51,980 nucleotides of DNA from a virus (Duplodnaviria; Caudoviricetes), in the IMG/VR virus record IMGVR_UViG_3300038427_000258, positions 1 through 51,980 of that record; one strand, written 5' to 3'. This document shows positions 1,246 to 38,556 of this stretch, piece after piece. The notes under the pieces are model-generated. The model made no database searches. It was given only the letters and a program-made list of their open reading frames with translations, and was not told the origin of the DNA. Each line of letters begins with the position of its first letter. The first letter of the stretch is position 1. The position numbers and the translations under genes are program-made.

Positions 1246-1593
1246 ATGGACTACGAAGAATTTCTGATGCCGGAGCAGTACGCGGACCTGTTGCGGCCCT
1301 CGCGAATGCCGCCTATAAAGGCGTTCTGGTACGCGGTGCTGCGCGATGCGCTATGGTGTATGCAGTCAACGGCAAAGAACGGGCAGATGGACCGGCAGCG
1401 CAAGGCGGACCGCGCGTGGGTGGAGAGCTACAGCCGGGAGCCGGGAAGCTTTTTGTTTGTGTGCGAGGTCATCGGGGTGGATGCGCAGGCGTTGCGCGAG
1501 CGGATACTGAGTGGAGGGCCCGCGATAAAACTGAGGAAAAGTCCGGTGATGCGCGGAGCCAAGATAAGGCTGCCGCATCGGAGGGTGGCATGA
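1246..1593 (+). CDS. Conserved hypothetical protein (LMPEQY...AVLRDA...W...SFxFVCExxGxD family)
   Basis: Motif pattern recalled from a family abundant in Binatota/deltaproteobacterial genomes; ATGA overlap with the next gene. Confidence 0.8.
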   Translation: MDYEEFLMPEQYADLLRPSRMPPIKAFWYAVLRDALWCMQSTAKNGQMDRQRKADRAWVESYSREPGSFLFVCEVIGVDAQALRERILSGGPAIKLRKSPVMRGAKIRLPHRRVA

Positions 1594-2003
1594 GGAAGCT
1601 GATTTATCTGGTCGCGCTGCTCGCGGCTTTGGCCCCAAATGCACGGGCGGGCATCGTCATCCCGGCTGGTGGGGGGCCGCTGATGGCGACCTTTGATTTC
1701 ATCGGGACGCCGGGCGCCAGCCAGAAAGAGGCGTTCACCTGTGTGTATCCAGTTACGGTGCCGACCAATTTTCTGCTGCCCACCAGTCAGGTGACATGCG
1801 GCAGCAACCCGAGCGAGCAGGACATCTATACGGTGAAGATAAACGGCGCCACGGTCGGGACGATTACGCTCTCGACCTCATGCGGGGTGACGCTGGGGAC
1901 AGCGACGGCGACGACGTGCGCGATCGGCCAGAGGTTTGAGATTGATGCGCCGGGGACGGTGAGCGGCGCGGACATCGCGTTCGGGATAGGGATCAGCCGA
2001 TGA
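1590..2003 (+). CDS. Secreted beta-rich protein (signal peptide, 4 Cys), possible virion decoration protein
   Basis: MRKLIYLVALLAALAPNARA|G signal with AxA site; ATG 1590 overlaps the upstream TGA (ORF-track start 1095 is too long). Confidence 0.8.
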   Translation: MRKLIYLVALLAALAPNARAGIVIPAGGGPLMATFDFIGTPGASQKEAFTCVYPVTVPTNFLLPTSQVTCGSNPSEQDIYTVKINGATVGTITLSTSCGVTLGTATATTCAIGQRFEIDAPGTVSGADIAFGIGISR

Positions 2004-2102
2004 CACGCCTCTTCTACGCCATCGCGCTGGTGGGTGCGTGAAGCGCATCCCCCTCATCGCGCTGTGGTTGCTGGCCCTTTGCTGAGTGACCTTGGAGATT
2101 TT

Positions 2103-3590
2103 ATGAAACGAATTCTTTCGATTCTGTTTTTCCTGATGATGGCGCTGCCAAGGCTGGCGCATGCGCAGTATTACCATGCCAGCTTCTTTAACGGCAGCAC
2201 CACACTGACCGCAACTTGTACCAATACGTCGGGCAGCTATACCTCCTCAGACGTATTTCTAGGGACGGCACAAGGAAACACGACAGTCACGCTTCCGGCG
2301 GCGTCGAGTAACTGTCTGGACTACGACATCATTGATTTGCGATTCACCCAAGCGGCGAGTCAGTCCTACACGTTGACGGTCAACGCAGGGGCGAGTTCGC
2401 AGGTCAAGATTATCTCGAATGGCGGTGTGCTGCTCGCGGCTCCGACTGGCGCGGCATCTGGCGCGGTGAACGTGCTACATCAGATTTGGGTTCACGATGC
2501 GGTCGCGACAACCGATACGTGGGAATTGGTGACGCAGGAGACTGGCGGTGTCAGCGGAATCACCGTCAACGGCGGCATCGCTCAGACTGGCTCTAGCTTT
2601 GTGACGGCTATTGGAACACCGTCGGCCCCGTCTATCGTGTCGGGCTTTACCGGCGGCACAACAGATTACTATTTCTGCGTCGCTGGTGACGTGAACGCGA
2701 CGACGGGAGGTGTCGGCACCACGATCCCCTCAGCGGGTACCGGCACCACGGGCACCACGGGCACGATGTCCTGCGGTGGTCAGACTGGTACGATGATTTA
2801 TTATCTCCTGCGCAAGCTTGTATCTGCTGTGCCGAGCGGAACGAGTACGTTTCTGGTTGGTTCTTGTACGACTACTTCGGGAGTAGCTTGTGATGTCGCA
2901 GATGCTGGTAACACGCTGACCACGTTCACCGCCAATATTGGCGATCTAACAGGTTCTGTGAGATTATCCGGAACGGCCACGTCTGCCCCTTATCTGGTAG
3001 TGACTGAGGGAACCGCCGCGTCTACTTCAGTGATGGGTCCGGTGCCGGGTTTTACGACCTTAGATGCTGGTTTGTGGCTAGGCATTGCGCCTGTCAGCAC
3101 TAGTATTACTAATTACACACTTGAAGGTAACAGTGCGACCACCAACGTTAATGCGGCGAGTGCAAGCGTCAACCTTCAGTCAGGCGGCACAACTTACTTC
3201 ACAACGTCTAGTAGTGGTTCGGGAACGACCACCACGCCAATTACTTCAACCACTGGCGCAATTGGCCCCACTGGCGGCGGTGTCCTGCAATCCTATGGCG
3301 GCACGGCTCCGACTCTCACGGCGGGCTGCAACGGTTCGGGCGCGAGCGCAATAACCGGCACCAATACCCACGGTCACTTCACGACCCAAACTGCGGCGGC
3401 GACCACCTGCACTGTGACCTTTTCCGCGTCGGGCGCCTTCCATGCCGCGCCAGATTGCGTGTTCTACGATAACAACGCTGATGCCACGCCATTAACCTTT
3501 AGCACCGGCGCGATTTCAACAACGACGGCGGTGGTCGATTTCAGCAGCCTTACCGCGACAGACATCGGCTATATCTGCATAGGTAGCTAA
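2103..3590 (+). CDS. Secreted Thr/Ser/Gly-rich fibre/spike-like protein (signal peptide, 10 Cys)
   Basis: GGAG SD; MKRILSILFFLMMALPRLAHA|Q; C-terminal FxxAPDCV...YICIG module typical of phage fibre/spike tips. Confidence 0.8.
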   Translation: MKRILSILFFLMMALPRLAHAQYYHASFFNGSTTLTATCTNTSGSYTSSDVFLGTAQGNTTVTLPAASSNCLDYDIIDLRFTQAASQSYTLTVNAGASSQVKIISNGGVLLAAPTGAASGAVNVLHQIWVHDAVATTDTWELVTQETGGVSGITVNGGIAQTGSSFVTAIGTPSAPSIVSGFTGGTTDYYFCVAGDVNATTGGVGTTIPSAGTGTTGTTGTMSCGGQTGTMIYYLLRKLVSAVPSGTSTFLVGSCTTTSGVACDVADAGNTLTTFTANIGDLTGSVRLSGTATSAPYLVVTEGTAASTSVMGPVPGFTTLDAGLWLGIAPVSTSITNYTLEGNSATTNVNAASASVNLQSGGTTYFTTSSSGSGTTTTPITSTTGAIGPTGGGVLQSYGGTAPTLTAGCNGSGASAITGTNTHGHFTTQTAAATTCTVTFSASGAFHAAPDCVFYDNNADATPLTFSTGAISTTTAVVDFSSLTATDIGYICIGS

Positions 3591-3592
3591 AG

Positions 3593-4069
3593 ATGAAATG
3601 GGCAATTAGCGCGCTATTTCTTCTCGCTCTCGCGGCGGTTGTTCATGCGTCCTCTTATTCATGGCCTACTCCCGCGAGCACACCATCCGCCTTTGTTGGC
3701 GTCACGGTTATAGCGACGCCCGCGCCAACGCCCATTCTAGGCGAGCTTTGTTTTCAAGAGTTCGGGCCCGCGCCTACCTACAGCCTTGTGCAACCGACCA
3801 CCTGCGGCCAGAACTTCACCGTGACAGCCAATGACATCGTTTGCACCGGCATCTCTATAGGACCGCCGCAATCGTCTGGCGAACCGAGCGGACCGTTTCC
3901 TTCGACCGTCCAACTCAACGTCAACTCGACGGCCTACAAGAACGTGCCGGTCAATTCGAGCACTGGCTTAATAGGATGCGACCTGATTGTCGGACAGCAA
4001 ATCATCTACGTGCAGCTGATCGGCCAAGCCACGTTCGGGACCGCAACCTCGCAGATTCAGTCCCAATGA
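3593..4069 (+). CDS. Secreted protein (signal peptide, Pro/Thr-rich N-terminus, 4 Cys)
   Basis: [19 protein letters not shown]|S. Confidence 0.8.
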
Positions 4070-4076
4070 GCAATGC

Positions 4077-4799
4077 GTGAAACCTTATCGCATCATCATA
4101 GCGTTGACGCTGCTCGCGATGTTCGCGTTGGTCTGGCGGGCGAGCGCGCAGGAAGGGCAGAGCTTTTTCTTCAACGAGTTTCCGCAGGGGCAAACCGCCA
4201 CAGCGACCGCGACGCCCACGCCGACGCCCACAGCAACTCCCACTCCGACCGCCACAGCCACGCGTACCCCGACTCCGACAGCTACCGCAACTGCTACACC
4301 CACCCCCACTCCAACCGCCACGACGACCATGACGCCGACACCGACTGCAACCCCGACACCTACATCCACGGCAACCGCGACCCCAACTCCGACCGCGACG
4401 CCGACGCCCACGCCGACCCCGACTGCTACAGCCACGGCCACGGCAACCGCCACGATGAGTCCGGTGCCGACCATGACGCCGGTGCCGACGCCGACTCCCG
4501 TGCCCGGTACTCAGAAAGGTTGGGTCTCGCTAATTCTCTATAAGGACGCGCCAGATGCCGATCTACCAGTACGAATGCAACAACGACCACACCTTCGAGG
4601 AATGGGAACCGCTGGGAGCGGCGACCACGCGGAAGTGCAACCAGTGTCAGGCCCGCGCGCATCGCATAATGAGTCCCGTATCGATCAACTTCGACGTGCC
4701 GTGCGGACCCGCCGACTTCAGAGACTCGCGCCGCGAGAGCGACTACGATCGCAAGCTCGCGGGAGCGTTCAGCCTCGGCAGCGCAATCCAGAAGGCTAA
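4077..4799 (+). CDS. Secreted mucin-like Thr/Pro/Ala repeat protein; the true 3' end may be near 4543
   Basis: GTG start; signal ending ASA|Q; about 100 residues of TATPTP repeats; ORF overlaps the next gene by 245 nt. Confidence 0.7.
4192..4505 (+). repeat. Coding low-complexity (ACN-CCN/GCN)n repeat encoding TP/TA
   Basis: Directly visible degenerate hexamer repeat with wobble-position variation. Confidence 0.9.
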
Positions 4800-4818
4800 T
4801 CAGGGAATGAAGCAATGA
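4555..4818 (+). CDS. FmdB-family zinc-ribbon protein
   Basis: [12 protein letters not shown]...CxxC...RIMS signature; AAGGA SD. Confidence 0.85.
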
Positions 4819-6052: not shown

Positions 6053-6286
6053 ATGATCCAAATTGAAATCGGCGGTCTCATCCTGCTCGTCCTTGACATC
6101 ATCCTGCTCATTTGGCTCTCGCGCCTCGCGGGCCGCATCGATGGCCTTACGTCGGAGCCGAAGCGCGGTCCCGGTGTTGTAACGCGGCTACGCGAGGTGG
6201 CGACCGGCGGCCCCGGCTCCAAGCTCCATCTCCCAACCGATTTCGAGAAGGTCGCCAAGGCAAGCGATGATCGAAACGACGCATGA
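6053..6286 (+). CDS. Single-pass membrane protein
   Basis: N-terminal hydrophobic helix IGGLILLVLDIILLIWL. Confidence 0.7.
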   Translation: MIQIEIGGLILLVLDIILLIWLSRLAGRIDGLTSEPKRGPGVVTRLREVATGGPGSKLHLPTDFEKVAKASDDRNDA

Positions 6287-13603: not shown

Positions 13604-14611
13604 ATGAGTCTACCTTCCGAAACCGTACTCCTTTCGAATATCGCAGTGTCCGTCTGGCAGTCGAAACTCAGAGACTTCGTAACGGACGATTTTTTCGGAG
13701 TTATTCCATTATTCGAGAAGCTCTATCTCAATGATGGTGGCGAGGGCACAGTCATCCGGTTCGAGGGCGGACGCGAAATCGCATCGACCATCCTGTATAA
13801 CGCGCCGGTCACCGAGTCCTATGGACCAGGCGCGACCGCCGACACCTCGATCGTGCAAATCGTTACCGACCTGATTTTTCAGTGGAAGCAGGTCTGGACA
13901 CCCATCAATCTCGATGGCCTCTCGCTCGCCAAGTTGGCTGGTGGCCCCGAAACCAAGTTGATCGACTATGTCGAGAAACTCGGCGAGGCGGCTTTCCAGT
14001 CGCACGCGACCAAGCTCGACGTAATGATTCAGGGTGACGGCACCGGCAACAGCTCGCTGGATTGGGACGGCCTGCTCGAAGCGATCAATACTTCGTCGAA
14101 CTATTCGACTTACGGTGGCATCACGCGATCCTCGACGGCGGGCGACCCCGGCAACGCGATCAACGGCTATTTGAATGCGACCGGCGGCCCGATGAGCAAG
14201 GCCATTCTGGAAGCCGCTTACGTGCAGACCGCCTTCAACAAATACATGGTGGATCTCATCGTCACCACACGCACGCTGTTCGGCAAATTGTGGGACCACG
14301 TCGAAGGCGCGGATCGCAACGCATCCGGCCCGCTGCGCGACGTGGGCTTCCAGACCATCCGGTTCAATGGCGCCGAAGTGGTGTACGACGACAACGTAAC
14401 CGCTGGAACGGTCTGGGGCTTGAATACGAAGATGCTTCAGATGTGGTTCCTGTCGGGCAATGCGTTCACGCGGCGCTCGACTCAGTACGGGTTCACCGAC
14501 ACGGGCTTCCCGGTCGCGAACCAAGACATGACATTGGACCAGATGATTAGCTACGGCAACTTCATCTGCGTTGGACCGAGGTATAATTTTCAGCTCCAGA
14601 ACGTGACCTGA
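13604..14611 (+). CDS. Major capsid protein (HK97 fold)
   Basis: AGGAG SD; 335 aa; GGREI..ILY, FQWKQ, GDGTGN..GL, YGGITRS and GFQTIRFNG.VVYD motifs. Confidence 0.9.
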   Translation: MSLPSETVLLSNIAVSVWQSKLRDFVTDDFFGVIPLFEKLYLNDGGEGTVIRFEGGREIASTILYNAPVTESYGPGATADTSIVQIVTDLIFQWKQVWTPINLDGLSLAKLAGGPETKLIDYVEKLGEAAFQSHATKLDVMIQGDGTGNSSLDWDGLLEAINTSSNYSTYGGITRSSTAGDPGNAINGYLNATGGPMSKAILEAAYVQTAFNKYMVDLIVTTRTLFGKLWDHVEGADRNASGPLRDVGFQTIRFNGAEVVYDDNVTAGTVWGLNTKMLQMWFLSGNAFTRRSTQYGFTDTGFPVANQDMTLDQMISYGNFICVGPRYNFQLQNVT

Positions 14612-14627: not shown

Positions 14628-15335
14628 ATGAAGTCAAGGACATATCTATTTGGACCGTTGATTGGCGCTCTCGCTTTGGTCGCGCTCTCGGTTGCCGCCG
14701 TTTACGCAGCGGTGCCGTGGCCGTCTGGCGCGAGCATCCCCAGCAACGTGCAGAACGTGACCGGCTCGACGCCATCACCCGCCGCATTTCCGACCAGCAC
14801 CAACGTACCCGGTGTCATCATCGATTTGATGACTGGCAACACCACGATGGGCGCGCTGACGGGCGGCATTACGGGCAACTATGAGACATTGATCATCGAG
14901 CAGGACGGGAGCGGTAGCCGCACCTTCACGGGGCCATCGACCTTGAAAGGAATGCCGAGCACCATTCCGACTGCGGCAAATTCCTACACCGTCTGCAAAC
15001 TGTACTACGACGGGACCAATTACAACGTCACGCCGACCGGAGTGTGCTTCGACAATCTGCCGCTGACCAATCTCTATGCCAACGTGCAGAGTTCGGCGGG
15101 CACCGTCATCGCGCCGGGTGCGACGCAGGCACAGACTACGCTGTCGGTTCCGGGGGCGAACGCGAATACGCCCTGCTCCTGCACGCCGCAGACCTATCCG
15201 GCGACTTGGCAGGTTGGCATCGCGACGCAGTGCGTGCCCGGCACCAACACGGTTATCTGTCAGGTGGTGAACGGCGATCCGACCAACACTCATACGCCGA
15301 CCGCCATCTCGCTATCGGTGAGGCTATATCCGTAA
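14628..15335 (+). CDS. Signal-peptide protein with a fibre-type domain (6 Cys), possible head fibre/decoration
   Basis: MKSRTYLFGPLIGALALVALSVAAVYA|A; LIIEQDGSGSRT...LYYDGTNY motif common in phage fibres; directly after the capsid gene. Confidence 0.75.
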   Translation: MKSRTYLFGPLIGALALVALSVAAVYAAVPWPSGASIPSNVQNVTGSTPSPAAFPTSTNVPGVIIDLMTGNTTMGALTGGITGNYETLIIEQDGSGSRTFTGPSTLKGMPSTIPTAANSYTVCKLYYDGTNYNVTPTGVCFDNLPLTNLYANVQSSAGTVIAPGATQAQTTLSVPGANANTPCSCTPQTYPATWQVGIATQCVPGTNTVICQVVNGDPTNTHTPTAISLSVRLYP

Positions 15336-15601
15336 TGCGGCGGCTCACTTCAATCGGCATCGTGCTTGCCCTGGGGCTGGCTCTCGGAGTCAGCGCGTGG
15401 CAGCTATCCAGCCGTGCGGAAGTGCGCGAGGCGAAGATTCCGCGCTACGGCCTGCACATGGAGAAGATGTCGGCGGATTGCAAGCGGTCGTTCGAGGAAA
15501 TGAGCGGCGGCCATCAGGAATTTCAAATGGACATCCCCTCGTATGAACGCTTCATCAGGCGTCTTAACGAGTGCGGCGGAAAACTGGAAGCGGAGAAATA
15601 A
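15335..15601 (+). CDS. Small exported or membrane-anchored protein (2 Cys)
   Basis: TAATG overlap; MRRLTSIGIVLALGLALGVSAW signal/TM segment. Confidence 0.7.
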   Translation: MRRLTSIGIVLALGLALGVSAWQLSSRAEVREAKIPRYGLHMEKMSADCKRSFEEMSGGHQEFQMDIPSYERFIRRLNECGGKLEAEK

Positions 15602-21634: not shown

Positions 21635-21909
21635 GCGTAATGAACAGGCTCCCGCGCCAGCGCCAGCAGGCGGTTCTTCCGAAGAGTACGAAGGACACGC
21701 CGCGCTATTTGTTGAATCAGCGGCGCAACCTTCAGCGGGATTGGGCGACGGTAAGCAAGGCGCTTACCGACCTCTCGATGGTCGGAACTGCGGCACAATT
21801 GCCGGAGCCCGGACAGGGCGGGCGCTTCTTTCTCGCGACCGACACGTTTGAACTTTATGCCGACAGTGGCAATGGCTACTGGATAGTTTTTACGGGGGCT
21901 CAAGCATGA
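21631..21909 (+). CDS. Small tail protein
   Basis: TTGA overlap; GT.AQLP...GRFFLATDT..LY.D.G..W fibre-associated motif. Confidence 0.7.
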   Translation: MSVMNRLPRQRQQAVLPKSTKDTPRYLLNQRRNLQRDWATVSKALTDLSMVGTAAQLPEPGQGGRFFLATDTFELYADSGNGYWIVFTGAQA

Positions 21910-23123
21910 GTTTTTCTCCCGATCCGACTGTGCCTCAAAATACCGAAGCAATCGGCGGCGGCCTCGGCGCATCACGCATCCGCAACATTACGTCGTGGAT
22001 GCTCAATCTCTTCGGCTTCAGCGGCGCCGCACCCGTCACGTTCGCCAACGCGCCCTTTGGCATCGATACGAACAACCTCGTCACGGTGCAGGCCAACCCC
22101 ATCAGCGAGCTTGGCATCGCGACCAAGCAATACGCCGATGCGGCTAGCAGCCCTACTTGCAGCATCACAAATGGCGGAAGCGGGAGCGCTTTCAGCGGGA
22201 CGCTTAGTCCCGCCATCACTGCATACGTAGCACTTGCCCAATATCGTGTGCTTTGGACTCAGGCATCGCAGGGCAACGACACCATTGCTTTTAATGGACT
22301 GACTGCATTGAACGTGCGGAAAAATGTTGGGGGCGCGCTCGTCAATCTGGCTCCCGGCGACATTCCAGCGGGAGCGATTACCAACCTTATCTATGATGGC
22401 ACCAGTCTTGAAGTGACCGGCATTGTGGGGGTGATTCCCACCGCCAGCATCACGAACACAGCGGCAGCGTGGGCCGGTACGACCTCACCGGGACTCAATG
22501 CCTACGTCAATCGCGCGCAGTATATCGTGACGTGGACGGGAGCGGCCAGCCAAGGGAGCGACACAATCAACCTTAACGGGCTGGGCGCTCTCACGGTGAA
22601 GAAGAATGTCGGGGGCGCGTTGGTCAACCTCGCGGCAGGAGACATTCCAGCCGGTGCCACCACGGAGCTAATTTACGACGGAACCTATCTCGAACTCGTC
22701 AATGGCCCGATCACCGTGCCCGCCGGCGGATACGCTGCGCAGAATCTTTCGGGAACGGCGGCGAATACCAGCGCGCTGACCAATGTGACCGGCACGTTGA
22801 GTCTCACGGCGCCGAGCGTCGGCGGTCCCTTCCGTCTGATGGCGTCGTACTTCTGCGCGATTGCGAATGGTGCGACCGGCAACTCGATTGATTTCGAGGT
22901 TAGCGACGGAACGAATGTGTGGGCGTTCAGCAGCGTGGATATTCCAGGGAGCGGCAACGGCGGCACGTCGATGTCGGAAATATCGCCGGTGACCTACGCC
23001 AATGGCGCGTCGGTCTCGCTCAACGTGAAGGCTCTCGCGCTGCATAGTGCTACTCTAGGCGGGGTCAGTTCGCAGGCGTCGCTGCAAAGCGCGCTTAAGG
23101 GCTGGTTCATTCCCTCGACGTGA
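21906..23123 (+). CDS. Tail fibre (no signal peptide) with an internal tandem duplication
   Basis: ATKQYAD motif; two copies of ASQG.DTI..NGL.AL.V.KNVGGALVNLA.GDIPAGA...LIYDGT.LE. Confidence 0.8.
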   Translation: MSFSPDPTVPQNTEAIGGGLGASRIRNITSWMLNLFGFSGAAPVTFANAPFGIDTNNLVTVQANPISELGIATKQYADAASSPTCSITNGGSGSAFSGTLSPAITAYVALAQYRVLWTQASQGNDTIAFNGLTALNVRKNVGGALVNLAPGDIPAGAITNLIYDGTSLEVTGIVGVIPTASITNTAAAWAGTTSPGLNAYVNRAQYIVTWTGAASQGSDTINLNGLGALTVKKNVGGALVNLAAGDIPAGATTELIYDGTYLELVNGPITVPAGGYAAQNLSGTAANTSALTNVTGTLSLTAPSVGGPFRLMASYFCAIANGATGNSIDFEVSDGTNVWAFSSVDIPGSGNGGTSMSEISPVTYANGASVSLNVKALALHSATLGGVSSQASLQSALKGWFIPST

Positions 23124-26034: not shown

Positions 26035-27392
26035 TGGAAATCATTGACGGCGAGAAAGTTGTAACCAATAAGAAGGACGGCTCGAAGCTGGTACTTCGCG
26101 GCGGCGCATGGGTTCCCTACACACCGAAGCAGGGATCGGCGTATGAGCGTTATTTTGCAAAGCCCGCAACTCAAGCCGTGGGCAACTTACTCACTGGCGG
26201 CCCTGCGGGTCTGTTGTTTCAAGGTCGTCCGTTGCCCATAGGCCCGAAACCGGACAGCCCGATGGCTAGAAAGCTCGCGGAAAATATCGTTCCGCAGACG
26301 CCCGGGCAGGCTGGTCGCGACATCGGCATGATTGCGGGCGGAGAATTGCTCGCGCCGGCAGAAGGTGCGTCGCTCGCATACAAAATTGGCGCTCCGTTGG
26401 GTCGTACGGCTCTGACGGCGCTTACGAGTGCGGTAGGCGAGAAGCTCGCTGGCGGTTCCGCGCTGAAAGGTGCGGAAGAAGGTGCGCTACAACAAGGTAC
26501 CGGCGAAGCCGCAGCCCCAGCGATCAATTTTTTGGGGAGCTATGGAAAGACTGCGCTGAACGCCAAGGACGTAAAGAACGTCGGCGGTTTGGTAAGCGAC
26601 CTGATTCCCTCGCTTGGCGATGTGAGTACCGTACCGAAGTTCGATGCGGCGTTTCGCGGCGGAGAAGCGACCGAGAAGGCTGGTCAAAAGCTCGGCACTC
26701 TCGAAGAATCGATCAGCAAGCAGCTCGGCAAGAAGCCCATCGGGACGATGATGGTGCAAACTTCAGGGCGCACGCCGATGACCGTAAGAGTAAAGGCGTC
26801 CTTCGACGATATGGTGGATAAAATCCGCGACCTCAACCGTATCGGCTACGCGTATTCAGGCGATGCGCAACAAAAAGCGCTCGCGGCGGATGCCCGACGC
26901 GAGGCACACGACCTCACGGAAGAACTGAGCAGCGCGCTGAACAAGCAGCAGCCCGGTCTTGGGGATAAGTTTCTGAAGGTCCGGCGTGAATATGCGAAGG
27001 CCAGTCTGTTCACGCGGATTTTCAGTGACCCCGACCTTTATGATGCGAGTGGACGGCTCAATATGAACACCTTGCAGGAACTCGCGGCCAATCGCGGCTC
27101 TGCGGGTTTCCGCGAGGATTTGATCCGTGTGCTTGGCCGGGACGATACCAACAAATTTCTCGACAAAGTTTATCGCAATGCTCCATCGACCGCGCGAGAT
27201 GTGGACGCCGGACTCAATATGGGACTGAGTTTTCATCCGGGAACGGCAATGCCGCGGATCTTTGCGCATCCTCGATTGGGGCAGAAAGTCGGTGAGATAC
27301 CACGTCGATTGCCAAAAATCTCGCCCACCGCACCCGCCATCCTACTCGGTCGCCTGAAAGATTACCTGAGCCAAGGACAGGTCACTCCATGA
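26034..27392 (+). CDS. Ejection/internal virion protein
   Basis: TAATG overlap; N-terminal NKKDG.KLVLRGGAWVP, Gly/Ala-rich helices. Confidence 0.7.
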   Translation: MEIIDGEKVVTNKKDGSKLVLRGGAWVPYTPKQGSAYERYFAKPATQAVGNLLTGGPAGLLFQGRPLPIGPKPDSPMARKLAENIVPQTPGQAGRDIGMIAGGELLAPAEGASLAYKIGAPLGRTALTALTSAVGEKLAGGSALKGAEEGALQQGTGEAAAPAINFLGSYGKTALNAKDVKNVGGLVSDLIPSLGDVSTVPKFDAAFRGGEATEKAGQKLGTLEESISKQLGKKPIGTMMVQTSGRTPMTVRVKASFDDMVDKIRDLNRIGYAYSGDAQQKALAADARREAHDLTEELSSALNKQQPGLGDKFLKVRREYAKASLFTRIFSDPDLYDASGRLNMNTLQELAANRGSAGFREDLIRVLGRDDTNKFLDKVYRNAPSTARDVDAGLNMGLSFHPGTAMPRIFAHPRLGQKVGEIPRRLPKISPTAPAILLGRLKDYLSQGQVTP

Positions 27393-28471
27393 AACGACTG
27401 GGGGCGTGGGTATTGCTGATATTGCTGGTGTGGTGCGGTGTTGCGTCGGCGCAAACCGCCACAGCGACCGCGACGCCGATTCCGACGCCGACCGCTACTG
27501 CGACGCCCACCCCCACGGCGACACCAACCCCGACTCCGACACCGACGGCTACGCCGACCGCAACGCCTACTGCCATCTGCGGCTACGATGGAAACGCATA
27601 CAATTCAAATTCAGGCACGGGAACTAGCGTAACCATCAGCTTTACGGGCGGTCAGGCGAATAGTCTCGCGTTGGTGCAGGTTAACCTGGCTATTCCTACG
27701 GCATCGGCGACGCCTTATCCGCCCGTCGAGTATGCTTTTGAGTCGTTGCCCTCGAATTGGTATGAGGTAGCAGCCACCGCGGAAAGCGAGCAGACGCCAC
27801 CACAAGGGGCAAGCTTCTTACTGGCTTATCAGCTCCCCAGTTCGAGCACGAGTCCGGTGGTTCTGACGACTGGGGCGGGATCTACTTATTATAGTTGGCA
27901 AGAACAATCGTTTTATGGCGTGCCGACTTGGCTCGACACGCTACAAGCTGCCGCGAGCGCCGGTGAAGATAGCGGATTAAGCGCCACGTCCTATCCTCAG
28001 GGTTCCGTAATTACTAATCCCTTTCCGTGGCTACCCGGCCTAGAAGTATTCTTCACTGGCACGACATACACGGGGACCGACAATACATTTTCAACTCCGA
28101 TTTGGTCCTACGGGAGTCCCGTCCTGATCGGTCAGACCAGCGGGGTCGAATATCCCGATGCTATGGCGTATCAGTATTTTCCCACGACTCCCCCGAATTT
28201 GGGGCCAATCGTATGGCCGATGAGCATCGGCACCTATGCGTTCGGGCGAGCGGGGAACTTCGCGGTGGGACTATCGTGTGGTGCATCTACCCCGACACCT
28301 ACGCCGACAGCCACTCCAACCGCAACAGCAACTGCGTCAGCCACCGCGACCGTTGCCCCGACCGCTACGGCAACGCCCACAGCGACCCCGAGCCCTGCGC
28401 CTACACCTTACTGCCCTCCGCATGGGGGACCGGCCTACTACACTCCGAGCGCTAACCAATGTTTCGGATGA
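27389..28471 (+). CDS. Secreted tail-module protein: beta domain flanked by two TP/TA repeats
   Basis: MKRLGAWVLLILLVWCGVASA|Q; 4 mature Cys; ATGA overlaps at both ends. Confidence 0.8.
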   Translation: MKRLGAWVLLILLVWCGVASAQTATATATPIPTPTATATPTPTATPTPTPTPTATPTATPTAICGYDGNAYNSNSGTGTSVTISFTGGQANSLALVQVNLAIPTASATPYPPVEYAFESLPSNWYEVAATAESEQTPPQGASFLLAYQLPSSSTSPVVLTTGAGSTYYSWQEQSFYGVPTWLDTLQAAASAGEDSGLSATSYPQGSVITNPFPWLPGLEVFFTGTTYTGTDNTFSTPIWSYGSPVLIGQTSGVEYPDAMAYQYFPTTPPNLGPIVWPMSIGTYAFGRAGNFAVGLSCGASTPTPTPTATPTATATASATATVAPTATATPTATPSPAPTPYCPPHGGPAYYTPSANQCFG

Positions 28472-31400
28472 AAACGAAAATACTGCTGCTTGGCTTGTTG
28501 ATGGCGCTGGGAGCGCGATCGGCGTTCGGCCAGATAGTCACCTTTCAGGCCGACCAAGCCTTCGTCAACGAAATCAACGCCTCGTGGGGTTCCTGTCCGT
28601 CAGGGCAATACGTCACCGGCACGTTTCTAGGTCAGGCCCCGAGATGCGCCAACGGCAGCACGCTCACGCCGGGCACAGGTCTCATTGCGTGCGGCACTGG
28701 AACGATCTGCCTTCAGACGCCCGTGCTGCCGATCAATGGCGGCACGGGAACGAGCGCGCCGACCGCCCACGGCATTCTCATCGGTGAGGGGCTGGCTGGA
28801 TTCGATTCGGTGGTTTGTCCGTTCGGGCAACTGCTCGTGAGCATAAGCACCAGTGGCGACCCTGTATGCAGCGGGGAGGCAATAAGTTCCATCTTCACCC
28901 AGCTCTACCCGGGACTGCTCAACGGCACCGACGCCATCGGGCCTTTCAATGGCGCCCGGAGTGGCGAGAAAAATGTCGCGGACTTCGGGATTCTGAGCGC
29001 CAATGGCAGCCAGAGCACTACCACAGGCTCAGTGACCGGCACCGCTCTGACGGTGGGCTCCAACAGCTACGTGAATGGCCAATGGCTCCTGATTCCGCAA
29101 GCCGGACCAACCAACACGGAAGCAGCACCTTCGCCTGCGCCGACTGTAACGGCCGTTTCGCAAGATTGGGTGCCGGATCAGGTCATCACTTCCGCGCAAC
29201 TAAACACCGGCGCAACGCCTTTCATCATCCATCCAGTCCAGAATAATGCGGGATCGCACTGGTACTGGCCGACGGCTGCGGGAACTACCTCCTTGCTCAT
29301 TAACTGCCAACTCCAATCCGTGTCGTGCTCGAATAGCGGTGGCCCAACCTGCGGTACGGCGACGGTCATCATCAACCTAGGAACGGGATGCTATAACCTA
29401 ACTAACGGCGCCGCGATCGTCAGTGGCCTCGCTAACAACGGCACACTCGACGGAACCTACACCATCACGGCCAGCGGATCGCCTGCCACTTCCTTTAGCT
29501 TTTCGTCAAGTTCGAGCAGCTATCAGAACGGGAACGGCGGCATCGTAGACCAGTATCCGATTGTATGGCCACAAGGCACGGATGGATCGACCGTCGTAGA
29601 TGGTGGCGTGACTTGGACTAAATGCGATTCGACCTGTTCCCAAGCCTATCTTTACAAAACGGCTTTCCTGAATATCAACGGCGGCGAGAGCGCCGCTAGC
29701 TCCGCCTCGACCTCCGTCACGAACGCGAAGCCACTCGATAACGTTCACAATTACAATATCGTCGGAACTACACCTGACTCGATTGCCGAATCGGTGGTGG
29801 TTTACGGTAATCCGGGCGGCGCGGGCTACAGTCTTCTCGGAGCGGCCCCGAACAGCACGGATAATTATCATACGACAGCAGACTACCGCGATAACGGCAC
29901 CACGTATCTCAATGCGAGTTCGACGATTGCGGGAACGCCACCATCAAGTGCGACCAATAACGCGCTCTCGGCTAAAATAGTATCAGGCGGCGGAACGAGG
30001 AATATCGTGCTCTCTGCGGCCGCGAGCAACAGCGTGAGCGGCGTCAGCGTCTACCCCGATGACGCGCCGATCTTCAACCTTGCTATTGCGGCTCAGCAAT
30101 ACACCTGCCAGCCCAACACCCTGTGCGGCGGAAACGTCTATGCGCCAAATGGGCTTTATATCCAATCCTCGCCCATTCTCGCGGGATCAGCTACGAGCGG
30201 AAATATCCTGTCTGGTGAAAGTCTGGAAGGTTCAACTGCGCAGGGCGCCAACATTCTCGCGACGACGGCGATGGCGGGGTTGCCGCAGGTTCTCTGCACC
30301 AACTGCAACACCTTTCACGTTAGCGGTCTCTCGCTTTGGGGCGGCCCGGCAAACGCCTTCCCGCTCGCAGGCATTGAGCAGAATCACATCAATCCGAACA
30401 GCGGCCAGGTGAGTGCCGGTTTCAGTCTTTTCGAGAACAACCAGATCGGGGGCGGCTACGTTAACGCCCCTGGATTCAGTATCTGGGACGGCATCATCTT
30501 CACGAGTCGAGGTGCGAACGAAAACAACAATGATCATAACACGGTCATCGGTAATTCAATCGGCAACTGCACCGACGCCGCGGTTGGCATTCTGCATCTC
30601 AACAGTCTCGAAAACAAAATCATTGGCAATAGTCTGAGCTGCGGCTCGCAGACGATGGTTGCCTTCAATGGCGGCAGCGCCACGGTTGCAAACAATGCTG
30701 GTGCAGCCGGCAGCTATCTCGCAACCGTGCCAGGTTTTATGGTCGATATGCGCGCGGGAGATTATGTCCACAAAAGCACGTTTTCTGGTAACGATACCGA
30801 AAGCGTATACGGCTTGGCGCGCAGCGAAACGACGACGACGACGACTAGTGCCGCCTCGCTGACGATCAACGCCAATGGCGCGAGCGATAATAACGGCCAG
30901 TTTCCGATCATATGGAAAAGCTCGAATGTGCGGCTGTTTCTGTCGGGGGCCTTGGCTGAAGGCTCGCCCGATGGCGGCAACTCAATTAGCATGGCCCCGA
31001 CGATCATCACAAACGCCTCTATCGGGAGTCAGTTCGTCTTCGGCAATGAATTTGTTCTCAGCGACGATTTGGTGACGCAAAATCCGACCAACATCACGTT
31101 GATTGGGAGCGGCAATCCCATTGCGGGATTTCCCAAACAGATTAGCGGAATCATCGGTGGCACCATTTCGGGTATGGGTTTCGGTTATGCTGGTGCTTCC
31201 AGTGTCGGGAATATTTTCGGTTCTGTAGCGGGTGCGGGGTCCAACTTCCAGCAGGATCAGGCTAATGCGCTGTATATGGATGGTGGCGGGAACCTGAACC
31301 TAAATAACCATCAGGGGACCACCAATGTTTGTCCCGCCGGCGTCAATAATTTCGAGAATGAAGGGTGCCCAATAGGCGCAATCGACCCCGCGACGATTTT

Positions 31401-31713
31401 CGGTACGATGTTCAATTCGGTCCCCGCCGTGACATCGCAGAGTGGCACTGGCGGGACGGTGGGTTGTAGCGAATCGATGCAGGGGACTCTGAAGATCGCG
31501 AATTGCGTCTTCACTGGATACTACGAGACGGGATCAGCACAGACGTATTCGTTCCCGACAGCGTTCAATCAGATTCCAAGTCTCATCGGCGGTTCCTGCG
31601 ATTACAATGCGGCGCTCGCGGCCTTCCCCAGTACGACCACCTCGACGCTAACGCTCCCGGCGGGTGGATCCATGAATCCGATCTCCTGCAACCTGACCTT
31701 AGTGGGAAACTGA
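28468..31713 (+). CDS. Tail spike / depolymerase-like protein (pectin-lyase beta-helix) with a Sec signal peptide
   Basis: MKTKILLLGLLMALGARSAFG|Q; NVADFG and DDAPIFNLAI..GG.VYAPNG.Y motifs; Asn-ladder repeats; LPINGGTG fibre motif; 24 Cys. Confidence 0.85.
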   Translation: MKTKILLLGLLMALGARSAFGQIVTFQADQAFVNEINASWGSCPSGQYVTGTFLGQAPRCANGSTLTPGTGLIACGTGTICLQTPVLPINGGTGTSAPTAHGILIGEGLAGFDSVVCPFGQLLVSISTSGDPVCSGEAISSIFTQLYPGLLNGTDAIGPFNGARSGEKNVADFGILSANGSQSTTTGSVTGTALTVGSNSYVNGQWLLIPQAGPTNTEAAPSPAPTVTAVSQDWVPDQVITSAQLNTGATPFIIHPVQNNAGSHWYWPTAAGTTSLLINCQLQSVSCSNSGGPTCGTATVIINLGTGCYNLTNGAAIVSGLANNGTLDGTYTITASGSPATSFSFSSSSSSYQNGNGGIVDQYPIVWPQGTDGSTVVDGGVTWTKCDSTCSQAYLYKTAFLNINGGESAASSASTSVTNAKPLDNVHNYNIVGTTPDSIAESVVVYGNPGGAGYSLLGAAPNSTDNYHTTADYRDNGTTYLNASSTIAGTPPSSATNNALSAKIVSGGGTRNIVLSAAASNSVSGVSVYPDDAPIFNLAIAAQQYTCQPNTLCGGNVYAPNGLYIQSSPILAGSATSGNILSGESLEGSTAQGANILATTAMAGLPQVLCTNCNTFHVSGLSLWGGPANAFPLAGIEQNHINPNSGQVSAGFSLFENNQIGGGYVNAPGFSIWDGIIFTSRGANENNNDHNTVIGNSIGNCTDAAVGILHLNSLENKIIGNSLSCGSQTMVAFNGGSATVANNAGAAGSYLATVPGFMVDMRAGDYVHKSTFSGNDTESVYGLARSETTTTTTSAASLTINANGASDNNGQFPIIWKSSNVRLFLSGALAEGSPDGGNSISMAPTIITNASIGSQFVFGNEFVLSDDLVTQNPTNITLIGSGNPIAGFPKQISGIIGGTISGMGFGYAGASSVGNIFGSVAGAGSNFQQDQANALYMDGGGNLNLNNHQGTTNVCPAGVNNFENEGCPIGAIDPATIFGTMFNSVPAVTSQSGTGGTVGCSESMQGTLKIANCVFTGYYETGSAQTYSFPTAFNQIPSLIGGSCDYNAALAAFPSTTTSTLTLPAGGSMNPISCNLTLVGN

Positions 31714-31716: not shown

Positions 31717-31938
31717 ATGAAGCGAGTAATCATAACGATGATCGTGCTGATGTTTCCCGTCAGTCTACTGGCGCAAACAGTTTGCTTCACTGGGCCGAAC
31801 ACGCAGTATGAATGGGGCGCCGCATGCGTGACGCAAACAGCGACGCGAACGCCGGTGCCTACCAACACCGCGACCGCGACCGCGACCGCCACGGCCACGC
31901 GGACACCGACTCCGACGCCGACGGCGACGCCAACGTAA
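31717..31938 (+). CDS. Tiny secreted peptide: Cys-pair loop plus TP/TA tail
   Basis: MKRVIITMIVLMFPVSLLA|Q; 2 Cys. Confidence 0.75.
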   Translation: MKRVIITMIVLMFPVSLLAQTVCFTGPNTQYEWGAACVTQTATRTPVPTNTATATATATATRTPTPTPTATPT

Positions 31939-32291
31939 TGAGCACAGGAGGAGAGCATGATGTGGTCACTTGGGGCCTGCTCGAAATTATCGGAGCGGTT
32001 GTCACCGCGCTCGGAACCATCATCGCATGGCTGTTCGCGCGGCTGTTCCCAACCAAATCGGCGGTACAAGCGATGATTGAGGAAGCGAGAAAAAGGGACA
32101 AGGCAGAGCATGACGCGAGCCTCGACACAATCGCCAAAGAACTGAAGCTCCGCGAAGAGATGCGCGATCGCCAGCACGCGGAGAATCAGGAGCGGTTCAA
32201 ACGGCTCGACGACAAGGTTGACGAGATTCCCGACAGGGTGGAACAGAAACTGCGGGATTTCTTCAACTATACGCGCGGCGGAGGAACCTGA
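31938..32291 (+). CDS. TM plus coiled-coil protein (holin/spanin-like lysis protein)
   Basis: One TM helix followed by a charged coiled coil; start of the lysis region. Confidence 0.6.
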   Translation: MSTGGEHDVVTWGLLEIIGAVVTALGTIIAWLFARLFPTKSAVQAMIEEARKRDKAEHDASLDTIAKELKLREEMRDRQHAENQERFKRLDDKVDEIPDRVEQKLRDFFNYTRGGGT

Positions 32292-34180: not shown

Positions 34181-34489
34181 ATGAGCACCGAGAATGAAGT
34201 ACGAGAGAAGAACGCGAAGGTCGCGCATCGGTTGGACTTCGGGGAATACGGTTTCCTGAAATTCCAAGAGGGTCCGCGCAACGAGGTCGGCCACAACGGG
34301 TTGTTCATCGCCGAAGATGTGCTGCCGGTACTGGTCCAGCATCTCAAGAATCTCAACGGCGTGCTGCCCTCGCGGGAAACCTCGCTGGCTATCACGAAAC
34401 TCGAAGAGTGTCAGATGTGGCTCATCGCCCGCCGTGATGCTCGTGAAAAACAAGCTGTCCTCGGAACCTACAAGCCCCATCAGAGCTAA
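34181..34489 (+). CDS. tad1: Tad1/Acb2-family anti-defence sponge protein
   Basis: AGGAGGT SD; KFQEGP.NEVGHNG...SRETSLAITKLEE..MWL..R...R....V.GT matches the Tad1 signature. Confidence 0.8.
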   Translation: MSTENEVREKNAKVAHRLDFGEYGFLKFQEGPRNEVGHNGLFIAEDVLPVLVQHLKNLNGVLPSRETSLAITKLEECQMWLIARRDAREKQAVLGTYKPHQS

Positions 34490-34498: not shown

Positions 34499-34933
34499 AT
34501 GAAACGACACATCATCACACTCGCCATCGCGGCCCTCGCGTTCGCCGGCTGCTTCGCTTCCCAGGGCGGTGGCGGCAACATCACCGGCCCCATCGACAAG
34601 TTCATCGGCAAATCGCAGATCGTGCCCATCCCGGCGCTGCTCGCGCAGGCCATCACGACTTGCGCCAAGGGCCAGACCTCCGGCAACGCCGAAGCGCTCG
34701 TCGAATACAACTTCTGGGTGGGAAACTGCACCGGCGCAATCCAGCAGTCTCAGGCCATTCAGCTCGGTATCGTGGGGACCGTCGATCAGGGCGTGTGCGG
34801 GCTGTTCGACTGGAGCAACGGAACATCGTGGCAGCTATTGCCGAGCGTGGTGGTTCCGGCGCCGGCGCTCGCGATGTGCCCGGTGGCCGTCCCCAGCCCG
34901 GCTCCTACCGCTGCTCCTGCTACGGTGAAGTGA
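34499..34933 (+). CDS. Lipoprotein (spanin-like or exclusion protein)
   Basis: AAGGAG SD; lipobox FAG|C; 4 further Cys. Confidence 0.75.
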   Translation: MKRHIITLAIAALAFAGCFASQGGGGNITGPIDKFIGKSQIVPIPALLAQAITTCAKGQTSGNAEALVEYNFWVGNCTGAIQQSQAIQLGIVGTVDQGVCGLFDWSNGTSWQLLPSVVVPAPALAMCPVAVPSPAPTAAPATVK

Positions 34934-35839: not shown

Positions 35840-36115
35840 CTACTCCTTTCTTCCGAGGCGCACCAAAAAGTAATAGAACGCGATAGACGCGCCAGTCCAT
35901 ACTCCCCCTAAAACAAAGATCAGTTGTTGCGTCGGAGCCCATAGCATCCATTCCTCATCATCAAACAGTCCTGGTGCGAATTCGATATGATGCCACGGCA
36001 AAAAAAACTTAGAAGTGATCAAAAATAGGAGCATGATTAATCCGCCAAATTTGACGGCTAATAATGTAGGTGGTAGCCCTCGATTATGTCGCGCTAAAAG
36101 AATCAGATGGCTCAT
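35840..36115 (-). CDS. AT-rich 2-TM membrane protein flanked by 18-bp direct repeats
   Basis: Two hydrophobic segments; TCCTTTCTTCCGAGGCGC at 35844-35861 and 36123-36140. Confidence 0.7.
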   Translation of the reverse strand: MSHLILLARHNRGLPPTLLAVKFGGLIMLLFLITSKFFLPWHHIEFAPGLFDDEEWMLWAPTQQLIFVLGGVWTGASIAFYYFLVRLGRKE

Positions 36116-36931: not shown

Positions 36932-37121
36932 TTGCTTCTCCTTTCAGCGGATACCACGCGCATCCTCCGGCTTCGTCGCAATCGTGAATCCATTGGCGAT
37001 CGCATGAGCATTTCCATTTCGTACCAGCGGGAACACTCGCTTGATGCCTTACGTCGTGTCGATCGCCGCCAATAACGAACTTCGCGTTTCCCAGTTCCCG
37101 TTCGCAACTATGAATGGACAT
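36918..37121 (-). CDS. Small Cys-containing protein
   Basis: AAGGAG SD; WKCSCDRQW. Confidence 0.6.
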   Translation of the reverse strand: MSIHSCERELGNAKFVIGGDRHDVRHQASVPAGTKWKCSCDRQWIHDCDEAGGCAWYPLKGEANGPA

Positions 37122-37135
37122 TTGCTTCTCCTTGG

Positions 37136-37789
37136 TCATTTGCGGTCGAGGGCGGCGCGAGCCTTGTCGTACCACTCCTGTTCGGCTAGGCGAACAAAAG
37201 TAAAGCCGGTTGGTTTGAATAGTTCCGTTGCGTCACGCAGTAGGGCTTCCAGCGTTGCGGTTCTGCCCGTTGGCGTGGCGGCAAGAGCTCCTTCTGCCCG
37301 CGAGCCATCATCGGGTGCCATTTGCACAGCGCCCGCACCTGTATTCGTCCACTCGATACCGTCGCGATAGTATTCCAGCGCCTCCCGCAACTGCGCGGAG
37401 ACTTCCTCGGCGGCGTCGGCACGCTTCTCAGCTTCAATCATGCGCCCTACCGCTTCGGCGCTATCGAGGTTCTCCCATCTCGTCAGGATGAGCATCGCCT
37501 CATGATACTTACGCTGAAATTCATCCCGTTCCTTGATAGCCTCGTCGCGCTGGTCGCGGAGCTGGGCGAGGGCGTTACGAAGAAGTTCATAGTCGGACCA
37601 AGTAACGAAAGGACCGAGAGTCCAATAGTTATCGTCGCGTTTGTGCCAAGAACCTGCATTAAGTGAAATTGATGCACGCGATTCATTTTCGACTTCGACG
37701 AATCTACCGCTCTCGTGGGAGGGTGGGCCGTCAAATAGGACATAGAACTTCTGAGCAATCAGCCCCTCGATGTCGATAGGTTTGCTCAT
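37136..37789 (-). CDS. Mosaic early protein (FDGPPSHESGRFVEVE domain plus coiled coil)
   Basis: AGGAG SD; recognisable phage accessory module. Confidence 0.75.
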   Translation of the reverse strand: MSKPIDIEGLIAQKFYVLFDGPPSHESGRFVEVENESRASISLNAGSWHKRDDNYWTLGPFVTWSDYELLRNALAQLRDQRDEAIKERDEFQRKYHEAMLILTRWENLDSAEAVGRMIEAEKRADAAEEVSAQLREALEYYRDGIEWTNTGAGAVQMAPDDGSRAEGALAATPTGRTATLEALLRDATELFKPTGFTFVRLAEQEWYDKARAALDRK

Positions 37790-38124
37790 GGCTTCTTCTC
37801 CTGTGCGGCGGCGTAGTCGTCAAACCATTTCTTGACCGCAACGAGATACGCTTTAGCGTCTCGGTCGCCCACCGCGAACAAGCCATGCGCCTCCTCCGCC
37901 AACTTCGCGAGCGCGATGAGTGTCGGTGCAGCGTTTGCAAGGGCGACGATGTAGGCGGCGTCCTCGTGTTTGTCGATACCGGCTGCTCTTCCGTGGTTAT
38001 ATGCCTTCACAATTACGTGCAGGATCTCCGGAGACCAGATTTCGTTGTCGTGGTCGCTGAGAGTCCACGGCCCTTTGGTCGCCGCTTCTCCCAACTTGGT
38101 CAACGTGTCGAGTAGGTCGCTCAT
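37786..38124 (-). CDS. Ead/Ea22-like protein
   Basis: AATKGPW...DAAYIVALANAAP.LIA motif. Confidence 0.75.
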   Translation of the reverse strand: MSDLLDTLTKLGEAATKGPWTLSDHDNEIWSPEILHVIVKAYNHGRAAGIDKHEDAAYIVALANAAPTLIALAKLAEEAHGLFAVGDRDAKAYLVAVKKWFDDYAAAQEKKP

Positions 38125-38140
38125 TCGCCTCGCTCCCTTT

Positions 38141-38242
38141 TCACCAATATTTGAGAACAAAGTGATACACGACGAAGCCTAGGACGCCGTAGAGGCAGAC
38201 CCCTAAGAGTACCATCCCAACTAGAAATGTTATTAGCTTCAT
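38141..38242 (-). CDS. 33-aa membrane microprotein
   Basis: MKLITFLVGMVLLGVCLYGVLGFVVYHFVLKYW; ATGA overlap. Confidence 0.6.
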   Translation of the reverse strand: MKLITFLVGMVLLGVCLYGVLGFVVYHFVLKYW

Positions 38243-38556
38243 TCGCCTCGTAGCCTCGTCGCCTTGTCGGTGGATAGCGGCATCCCTGGCATGGTCTTTT
38301 GCGCCTCCGCTGGTACGCCCGAATGGCAGCCGTTGGCCGGCGGCTCGACCAACTTGTAACGTCTTTGGCCAGTTCCGCACACGCACGGCGGTTTTTCATC
38401 TAGGCTGAACCTAATGGTGTTCCAACCACACGAATCGCAGCGAGCAACGCACGAATCGAAGGCTTTGCTCATTTCCGAAACGGATGTTGGCGGCGTCTGC
38501 GCCATCGCGGTGGTTGCGAGGGCGAGGGTTAGGGTGAGGATTGCTAATGTTTTCAT
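38239..38556 (-). CDS. Secreted Cys-rich protein (6 Cys)
   Basis: AAGGAG SD; MKTLAILTLTLALATTAMA|Q. Confidence 0.75.
   Translation of the reverse strand: MKTLAILTLTLALATTAMAQTPPTSVSEMSKAFDSCVARCDSCGWNTIRFSLDEKPPCVCGTGQRRYKLVEPPANGCHSGVPAEAQKTMPGMPLSTDKATRLRGE

Follow-up and report, generated by a model that had tools for sequence, protein, structure and literature searches.

Sec-type proteins in a complete soil phage genome

The window analyzed here is the whole of IMG/VR virus record IMGVR_UViG_3300038427_000258 (51,980 bp), the complete genome of a podovirus-like soil phage. It is rated 100% complete, has direct terminal repeats of 127 bp, and encodes an HK97-type capsid together with a portal and a terminase. 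A first-pass annotation had singled out eleven open reading frames (ORFs) as encoding exported, cysteine-paired proteins of the fibre or spike type. All eleven are present in the window, and each begins with a Sec-type N-terminus. We name proteins by the start coordinate of their ORF (e.g., 14628 is the ORF at 14628..15335), and collected loci by L-numbers. See Table 1 for the coordinates of all features; the slash marks the cleavage site.

Table 1. Exported proteins and other features of the window, and related bacterial proteins
Feature	Position	Strand	Size and cysteines	Remarks
1590, exported	1590..2003	+	137 aa, 4 mature Cys	signal MRKLIYLVALLAALAPNARA/G
2103, modular fibre-like, exported	2103..3590	+	495 aa, 10 mature Cys	cleavage AHA/Q
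3593, exported	3593..4069	+	158 aa, 4 mature Cys	directly follows 2103
4077, signal plus Pro/Thr-rich repeat	4077..4799	+	repeat of ~120 aa, no Cys	signal ASA/Q
Large terminase	6267-9206			interrupted by LAGLIDADG intein
Portal	9758-11584			phrog_156, E 8.5e-8
Major capsid protein	13604..14611	+	1 Cys	phrog_9953, E 6.8e-26; no signal
14628, exported	14628..15335	+	235 aa, 6 Cys	adjoins major capsid gene; conserved family
15335, signal or signal-anchor	15335..15601	+	88 aa, 2 Cys	start overlaps 14628 stop
Virion structural protein	18999-20996		665 aa	phrog_3287
21906, fibre-like protein without signal	21906..23123	+	405 aa, 2 Cys	N-terminus conserved in relatives
27389, exported	27389..28471	+	360 aa, 4 mature Cys	signal ASA/Q
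28468, exported	28468..31713	+	1081 aa, 24 Cys	cleavage AFG/Q; LPINGGTG motif
31717, signal, 2-Cys loop, Pro/Thr tail	31717..31938	+	73 aa	signal LLA/Q
34499, lipoprotein	34499..34933	+	144 aa, 4 further Cys	lipobox ...AFAG/C
38239, exported, Cys-rich	38239..38556	-	105 aa, 6 Cys	cleavage AMA/Q
Signal-bearing LPVANGGTG proteins	L206:361-5448, L208:595-5037, L215:3069-5384, L222:592-2775		730-1700 aa	Bacteroidota contigs of metagenome-assembled genomes (MAGs)

Signal peptides

Each of the eleven N-termini has a Lys- or Arg-containing n-region and an uncharged hydrophobic core followed by an AxA-type site, or, in 34499, by a lipobox (FAG/C) instead. Signals were called with our own rule rather than SignalP, on our own gene calls, and rest in addition on conservation in homologues. 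For signal peptidase I (SPI), the rule looks for a positive n-region, an uncharged core of 8–20 residues, and small residues at −3 and −1, and these are found in all 10 SPI-type N-termini. Under a stricter automatic rule, seven of the SPI-type N-termini score ≥4.0 and 34499 is called a lipoprotein. This rule marks 8 of 64 window ORFs as signal-bearing. Among ORFs from loci of distant capsid relatives it marks 29 of 1397 (p = 1e-4), and among those from unrelated fibre-domain loci 20 of 555 (p = 0.005). The survey of related loci left out the duplicates L005, L021, L022, L082, L083, L091, L123, and L137, and two minus-strand “lipoprotein” calls in it (L003 and L004) look spurious. Conservation further supports the proposal of export, as the signal is kept by 11 of 11 homologues of 14628 (5/5 encoded in loci and 6/6 from databases, all classical), by 18 of 20 homologues of 2103 (one of the two exceptions looks 5'-truncated), and by both homologues of 28468.

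Gln stands at +1 in six of the ten SPI-type sites (2103, 4077, 27389, 28468, 31717, and 38239) and in many homologues. This pattern resembles the Bacteroidetes Q-rule, for which a mean Q-value of 71% is reported (PMC5837995). It may point to a Bacteroidota-like host, as a lead only, because the Q-rule paper did not cover Acidobacteria. A host search of genome contigs with query A3 gave no match, and the same search with query A2 (the 14628 family) gave only tip-domain matches in diverse MAGs.

The h-regions of 14628 and 15335 are long and score as 19-residue transmembrane segments, and these two proteins could be uncleaved anchors. A broader form of this idea is that some of the N-termini, notably those of 14628, 15335, and the ORF after 31717, are uncleaved signal-anchors that keep the proteins on the inner membrane, where they would function in lysis or assembly. 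In L084 and L085, a small 2-Cys protein that looks anchor-like and is analogous to 15335 follows the 14628 homologue, and the ORF at ~31935-32291 combines a transmembrane segment and a coiled coil with weak Rz-like and holin-like PHROG matches. However, the AxA site is followed by an invariant Pro-Trp in all 12 members of the 14628 family, which argues for cleavage just at AxA, and the other nine signals have short, classical h-regions. We therefore regard the signal-anchor model as improbable.

Cysteine parity and pairing

In coordinate order, the eleven ORFs encode 4, 10, 4, 0, 6, 2, 5, 24, 2, 5, and 6 cysteines. In 27389 one Cys belongs to the signal, and in 34499 one is that of the lipobox; because these two are excluded, both proteins have 4 cysteines in the mature region, and the mature counts are 4, 10, 4, 0, 6, 2, 4, 24, 2, 4, and 6, just as counted by hand in the first-pass annotation. 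All ten exported proteins that contain cysteine thus have an even number. This is not chance: the other 45 called genes with cysteines divide into 18 even and 27 odd (Fisher p = 7e-4). Among genes with at least two cysteines, the others divide into 18 even and 15 odd (p = 0.008). Both tests depend on the cleavage site chosen. In related loci scored with the automatic rule, signal proteins are 30 even to 9 odd, compared with 497 to 692 for the rest (p = 2e-5). Cys content is 1.2–7% in the exported proteins and 0–1.2% in most of the signal-less virion-module proteins.

Homologues repeat the pattern. An even mature count is kept by 21 of the 22 homologues of 2103 and 28468 taken together (19 of 20 for 2103). 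In the alignment of the 12 sequences of the 14628 family, cysteines occupy ten columns, and four pairs of columns (68/81, 160/180, 228/247, and 230/256) co-occur perfectly. One sequence departs from this with a variant pair. All members have 4 or 6 cysteines, and across the family cysteines are gained and lost strictly in pairs. The even counts in homologues and the paired cysteines of the 14628 family support the prediction that the exported proteins are disulfide-bonded, with the bonds presumably formed in the periplasm. Disulfides alone do not decide whether the proteins belong to the virion, because phage Milano, which assembles in the cytoplasm, is reported to have a disulfide network (PMC10811340).

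It could be argued that hydrophobic N-termini and even cysteine counts are meaningless products of chance or annotation, since the signal rule is home-made, the gene calls are our own, and parity depends on the choice of cleavage site. However, signals and paired cysteines are conserved across dozens of homologues from independent samples, and signals are enriched over related loci. The explanation by artefact is thus in effect already refuted and carries a very small residual probability.

Fibre-tip modules in exported proteins

Homologues of 14628 were found in 5 related metagenomic loci by tblastn, and 6 further proteins came from a word-index search. PF26209 is the precomputed family for 5 of 7 cluster representatives. 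An AlphaFold2 (AF2) model built from the 12-row alignment (predicted local distance difference test [pLDDT], 81.9; predicted TM-score [pTM], 0.78) shows two beta-sandwich domains of the fibre-tip and tailspike C-terminal type. In BFVD, many viral proteins have a “phage tail fibre C-terminal domain” that matches residues ~40–140 (102 matches at E ≤ 1e-3, with ~100 aligned residues, 25–33% identity, and a probability of 1.0). By VIA structural comparison, residues 34–143 reach a Z score of 6.5, and residues 150–235 resemble the C-termini of tailspike depolymerases (Kp32gp38, Z 8.2; phi297 gp61, Z 7.6; LKA1 gp49, Z 6.6) and also lectins, the Z values for these C-termini being middling by the aligner's own calibration. 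A Foldseek search of the model against the PDB gave weak matches, with TM ~0.2.

The region of the QDGTG-type motif in 14628 (residues ~68–132) matches 43 viral loci by tblastn, 42 of which were examined (the 1.1-kb L184 was left out, and the L164 ORF was not parsed). In 37 of the 42, the match begins within the last 135 residues of a signal-less, Cys-poor fibre ORF, and a signal is found in one ORF only, in L189. The three motifs quoted in the first-pass annotation (LPINGGTG, LIIEQDGSGSRT, and FHAAPDCV...YICIG) are all present, and the tip-domain matches show that its reading of LIIEQDGSGSRT in 14628 as an appendage motif was right at the domain level. The locus with the signal, L189:8913-13733, lies on an unrelated 58.9-kb viral contig and contains a run of four signal proteins of 265, 744, 119, and 293 aa with 6, 16, 2, and 4 cysteines, one of them with a QDGTG tip domain.

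Three modules make up protein 2103: an N-domain (~22–155), a middle module, and a tip at the C-terminus with FHAAPDCV...YICIG. They form a mosaic, as each is common to a different subset of the protein's 20 homologues. The modules of at least 14628 and 2103 are thus supported as being of the fibre or spike-tip type. The pectin-lyase beta-helix proposed for 28468 could not be verified. The protein has no match in Pfam, in NCBIfam, or in a PDB sequence search (PDB searches with A3 and A2 also gave no match), its AF2 model from a 2-row alignment failed (pLDDT 27.6), and the ESM Atlas gave leads only, below 0.9, with scores of 0.82–0.85 for Beta_helix, Pect-lyase, and fibre families. Only two relatives of 28468 were found among 5.8 billion proteins, both with signals and with 22 and 8 mature cysteines, and its C-terminal 95 aa are common to a signal-bearing SGNH-hydrolase protein.

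Structural regions of relatives repeatedly encode large, Cys-rich proteins with signals: L003 (646 aa), L024 (790 and 819 aa), L025 (1455 aa), L136 (1077 aa), and L138 (1073 aa). Fibre-like motifs of this kind also occur in bacteria. The LPxxxGGTG motif occurs 14 times in 7 of the 3379 long ORFs of the collected loci; two of the seven are cut at contig ends, L228 lacks a signal, and the other four have SPI signals exposing Gln. These four (L206, L208, L215, and L222) were found through the same fibre-tip domain as 14628, and three of them contain DUF5907 repeats. L206 and L208 are flanked by Laminin_G_3, IgGFc_binding, and DUF11 surface-protein genes, and L208 also by a release-factor gene. 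Because these neighbours are chromosomal, the Bacteroidota proteins are not virion proteins. Bacteria thus export fibre-like proteins of this kind without any virion, and therefore the tip domain and GGTG motif do not by themselves imply a virion part.

Site of action

Fibre-tip-like proteins that carry signals and paired cysteines almost certainly work outside the cytoplasm. The analysis shows that the signals are present and conserved, that cysteines pair, that 14628 folds like a fibre tip, that the modules of 2103 are shuffled, that the genes lie in late operons, and that the pattern recurs in a clade of soil phages. That the proteins act in the periplasm or at the surface, that they bind glycans, and what they do for the phage is inferred. 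We tentatively favour the reading that they are exported glycan-binding or glycan-degrading proteins acting on the envelope of the infected cell. The eleven proteins would be exported late in infection by the host Sec system, through SPI (signal peptidase II for 34499), and would acquire structural disulfides in the periplasm. Several would be built from glycan-binding beta-sandwich modules like those at the tips of tail fibres and tailspikes. Rather than assemble into the particle, they would act on the envelope and polysaccharides of the infected cell and bind, mask, or cut the receptor or an exopolysaccharide. This would limit superinfection and the loss of progeny on debris and would help release. 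For the lipoprotein 34499, a role in lysis or exclusion is probable. Late co-expression is likely because the signal-protein genes are tightly packed within late structural operons, scans for promoters and terminators gave counts at or below the shuffled expectation, and 14628 has the same GC content at third codon positions as the capsid gene.

Several observations lead us to this cautious preference. Every characterized signal-bearing protein of a tailed phage known to us (Llp, Cor, Lom/Bor, Imm/Sp, RI, spanins, and Sec or signal-arrest-release [SAR] endolysins) is non-structural. The fibre 21906 is signal-less and has a conserved N-terminus, and therefore the particle has an ordinary candidate for receptor binding. 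No homologue of 14628 was seen in four related phages (L002, L003, L009, and L011), and the 14628 orthologue of another strain contains a stop codon. The bacterial surface homologues and the proteins of Porphyromonas phages described below point the same way. A cell-surface role, which the first-pass annotation had offered as the alternative, is at least as likely as a place in the virion.

The stop codon lies in L082:3044-3748, the orthologue of 14628 in a strain from another sample with 97% nucleotide identity. TGG is changed to TGA at the invariant Trp31, and the rest of the ORF is intact, with 98% amino acid identity. The gene may be dispensable, the mutation may be very recent, or the assembly may contain an error.

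Other observations weigh against action on the envelope. The eleven genes take up 9,381 nt (18% of the unique genome), which is much for a lytic phage to spend on remodelling the envelope, and they are tightly packed in late structural operons with no excess of promoters or terminators. Neither a C-terminal domain of the type IX secretion system nor a PEP-CTERM domain was found among Pfam/NCBIfam matches at E ≤ 0.1 or Pfam matches at E ≤ 0.01, and therefore the route to the surface is unexplained. Composition-corrected BLAST found no similarity among the signal proteins of the window or between them and fibre 21906, and therefore a simple decoy model has no sequence support. (Apparent matches among the signal proteins in an earlier comparison were compositional and disappeared under this correction.) Furthermore, 14628 adjoins the capsid gene in at least 6 relatives and has diverged at about the same rate as the capsid protein (33–63% identity, compared with 42–54%), which suggests a conserved partner such as the capsid. 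The relatives of 2103 combine a conserved N-module with variable tips, as virion receptor-binding proteins classically do.

These last points bear on the reading preferred in the first-pass annotation, which we consider possible and somewhat doubtful. Here, the proteins would be virion appendages that fold and form disulfides in the periplasm and bind finished particles when holin lesions or lysis mix the compartments. The particle would thereby gain oxidized, soil-hardy head fibres (14628) and spikes (2103 and 28468). The fold of 14628 is of the right type, and the same tip domain ends signal-less fibres in most of the viral loci examined. In the mosaic of the 2103 relatives, which resembles that of receptor-binding proteins, the conserved N-module comes straight after the signal. 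Moreover, 14628 keeps its place beside the capsid gene and diverges about as fast as the capsid protein, and 28468 sits at the usual position of a podovirus spike, after genes resembling those for internal proteins. The recurrence of signal-bearing, Cys-rich proteins of 650–1455 aa in structural regions of relatives (L003, L024, L025, L136, and L138), the pairing of large and small signal genes like those of fibre and chaperone, and the sheer coding investment also fit. An add-on of this kind is physically plausible, as particles of model phages can take up tail spikes and decoration proteins in vitro, and holin lesions would mix the compartments before the outer membrane breaks. It may even be, and we would not put it higher than that, that a whole clade of soil podophages sends its head fibres and tail spikes through Sec, that they are oxidized in the periplasm, and that they dock onto finished particles during the seconds in which holin lesions connect the two compartments.

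Against virion appendages stand the topological barrier that lasts until lysis, the presence of the signal-less fibre 21906, the stop-codon variant of 14628 in L082, and the four related phages in which no 14628 homologue was seen. The same modules occur in bacterial surface proteins that are not part of a virion, virions made in the cytoplasm can hold disulfides too, as in phage Milano, and no precedent in a tailed phage is known to us, nor did full-text literature searches find a description of signal-bearing fibre-like proteins in tailed phages. A complex prediction for mature 14628 with the capsid protein, 15614, and 15915 gave a score of 0.12 and a mark of 0.32, which speaks neither for nor against.

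Comparison with known systems

T5 Llp, T1/phi80 Cor, lambda Lom/Bor, and T4 Imm/Sp are phage-encoded exported exclusion or receptor-masking proteins. Like the proteins proposed here, they are exported by Sec, are often encoded in or beside structural modules, and act on the envelope or a receptor. Unlike them, they lack fibre-tip domains, are small proteins of the lipoprotein or membrane type, and number one or two per genome, and searches of Pfam, PHROG, and NCBIfam found no similarity of window proteins to this type.

The closest published report is that of Q-rule signal proteins in Porphyromonas gingivalis phages, read there as outer-membrane modifiers (PMC10367356). In the part of the report on which we draw, these genes, to which no function is assigned, encode SPI signals with Gln exposed at +1, as at 6 of the 10 sites here. 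However, those phages are temperate and oral, and the same part mentions no fibre-like folds, Cys pairing, or adjacency to capsid genes. Five rumen phages have 0–2 signal peptides each, according to Table 3 of PMC5723332.

Other systems share single features with the window proteins. Both domains of 14628 have the fold of tail-fibre and tailspike tip domains (BFVD; Kp32gp38, phi297 gp61, and LKA1 gp49), but tail-fibre and tailspike proteins have no signal, few or no cysteines, and long N-terminal shafts, and they assemble in the cytoplasm. The pIII protein of filamentous phages is a Sec-exported receptor-binding protein that gains periplasmic disulfides before it joins the particle; inoviruses, however, assemble at the membrane, whereas the window phage encodes a capsid of the HK97 type along with a portal and a terminase. 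The Bacteroidota DUF5907-repeat proteins (L206, L208, L215, and L222) share the SPI signal with Gln at +1, LPVANGGTG repeats, and a QDGTG-type tip, but they are 730–1700 aa long, have only 1–2 cysteines, and are encoded in bacterial chromosomes among genes for lectin-like surface proteins. PBSX XepA (PDB 6i56) is likewise an exported beta-sandwich protein of a phage-like element, encoded with lysis genes; its structural match is weak and, at Z 4.2, does not rise above the aligner's noise, its host is monoderm, and the sequences show no similarity.

A tailed phage is known to export one or two small proteins, which serve exclusion or lysis. Here, genes for eleven exported proteins, several from receptor-binding modules, fill 18% of a genome, and soil phages both related and unrelated encode similar large proteins. 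The biology would be new under either reading. Action on the envelope would mean that modules for receptor binding have a second use in secreted factors that control the host surface. Virion appendages would mean that particles are completed with parts matured in the periplasm, a two-compartment assembly line undescribed for tailed phages. For annotators, the case is a warning that a fibre-like ORF is not automatically a virion protein.

Other exported proteins

Protein 1590 has a weak PHROG match to a tail fibre family (phrog_7049, E 0.005) and no match in Pfam or NCBIfam, and 3593 has no family match in Pfam, PHROG, or NCBIfam. Protein 4077 may be a remnant, as the tail of its ORF overlaps a real Zn_ribbon_8 gene (4555-4818) by ~245 nt. 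Genes of this FmdB-type zinc-ribbon kind adjoin large signal-protein genes both in the window and in the distant relatives L138 (3734-4252) and L025 (14204-14677). Protein 27389 consists of the signal, a Pro/Thr linker, a ~230-aa domain, a second Pro/Thr linker, and a short 2-Cys tail; the central domain resembles unnamed, mostly viral ESM Atlas clusters of ~190 aa (0.95). Three signal proteins have Pro/Thr linkers, as does 1 of the 66 other proteins. The linker DNA of the three signal genes (4187-4280, 27448-27541, and 31837-31931) is 77–82% alike, which could allow recombination between them.

A small signal gene with 2–4 cysteines lies directly 3' of each large one (2103/3593, 14628/15335, and 28468/31717). 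This order resembles that of a fibre and its chaperone, but here both products are exported.

The lipobox of 34499 (...LAFAG/C, residues 13–18) fits [LVIF][ASTVI][GAS]C after a hydrophobic core, as a pattern match only. The protein is encoded in the lysis-proximal region and has no family match in Pfam, PHROG, or NCBIfam; it could function as an o-spanin or as a lipoprotein for exclusion. Paired as a possible spanin set with the ORF at ~31935-32291, it contributes the lipobox, while the partner has an Rz-like PHROG match at E 0.039; the two genes are 2.2 kb apart. The partner ORF, for which an internal Met start is probable, also has a weak DUF2730 match. Protein 38239 is the only exported protein in the minus-strand (early) block.

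Genome context

The capsid protein has 606 relatives at E ≤ 1e-3. Its closest cultured relatives are the Brucella Tb-like podophages, at 22% identity, and the lineage is therefore an uncultured one. A tblastn search of 50,697 phage records with 14628, 2103, and 28468 gave no match, and scanning viral contigs with the capsid protein or with 28468 as single queries revealed no close relatives. In L084, L085, L086, and L136, the gene order is capsid, 15614-like, 14628-like, and later 15915-like. The intein that interrupts the terminase was recognized by LAGLIDADG_3 (E 2.9e-16) and by Intein_splicing (E 1.2e-5, below the cut-off), and relatives L002 to L005 align only with the terminase parts that flank it. 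Pfam scans of 49 window proteins found no endolysin family, Dsb-like oxidoreductase, or glycosyltransferase, and no tRNA genes were found in the window.

The rest of the genome comprises the minus-strand early block and a replication and recombination block with RecT, a PD-(D/E)XK nuclease, a RecD-like helicase, a D5-type primase, and an MT-A70 methylase. Directly before the lipoprotein gene 34499, a gene at 34181-34489 encodes a 102-aa protein in which Pfam detects, above its cut-off, an Acb2/Tad1 hairpin domain (E 1.4e-7). This makes the protein a candidate sponge that would soak up the cyclic nucleotides of defence signalling.

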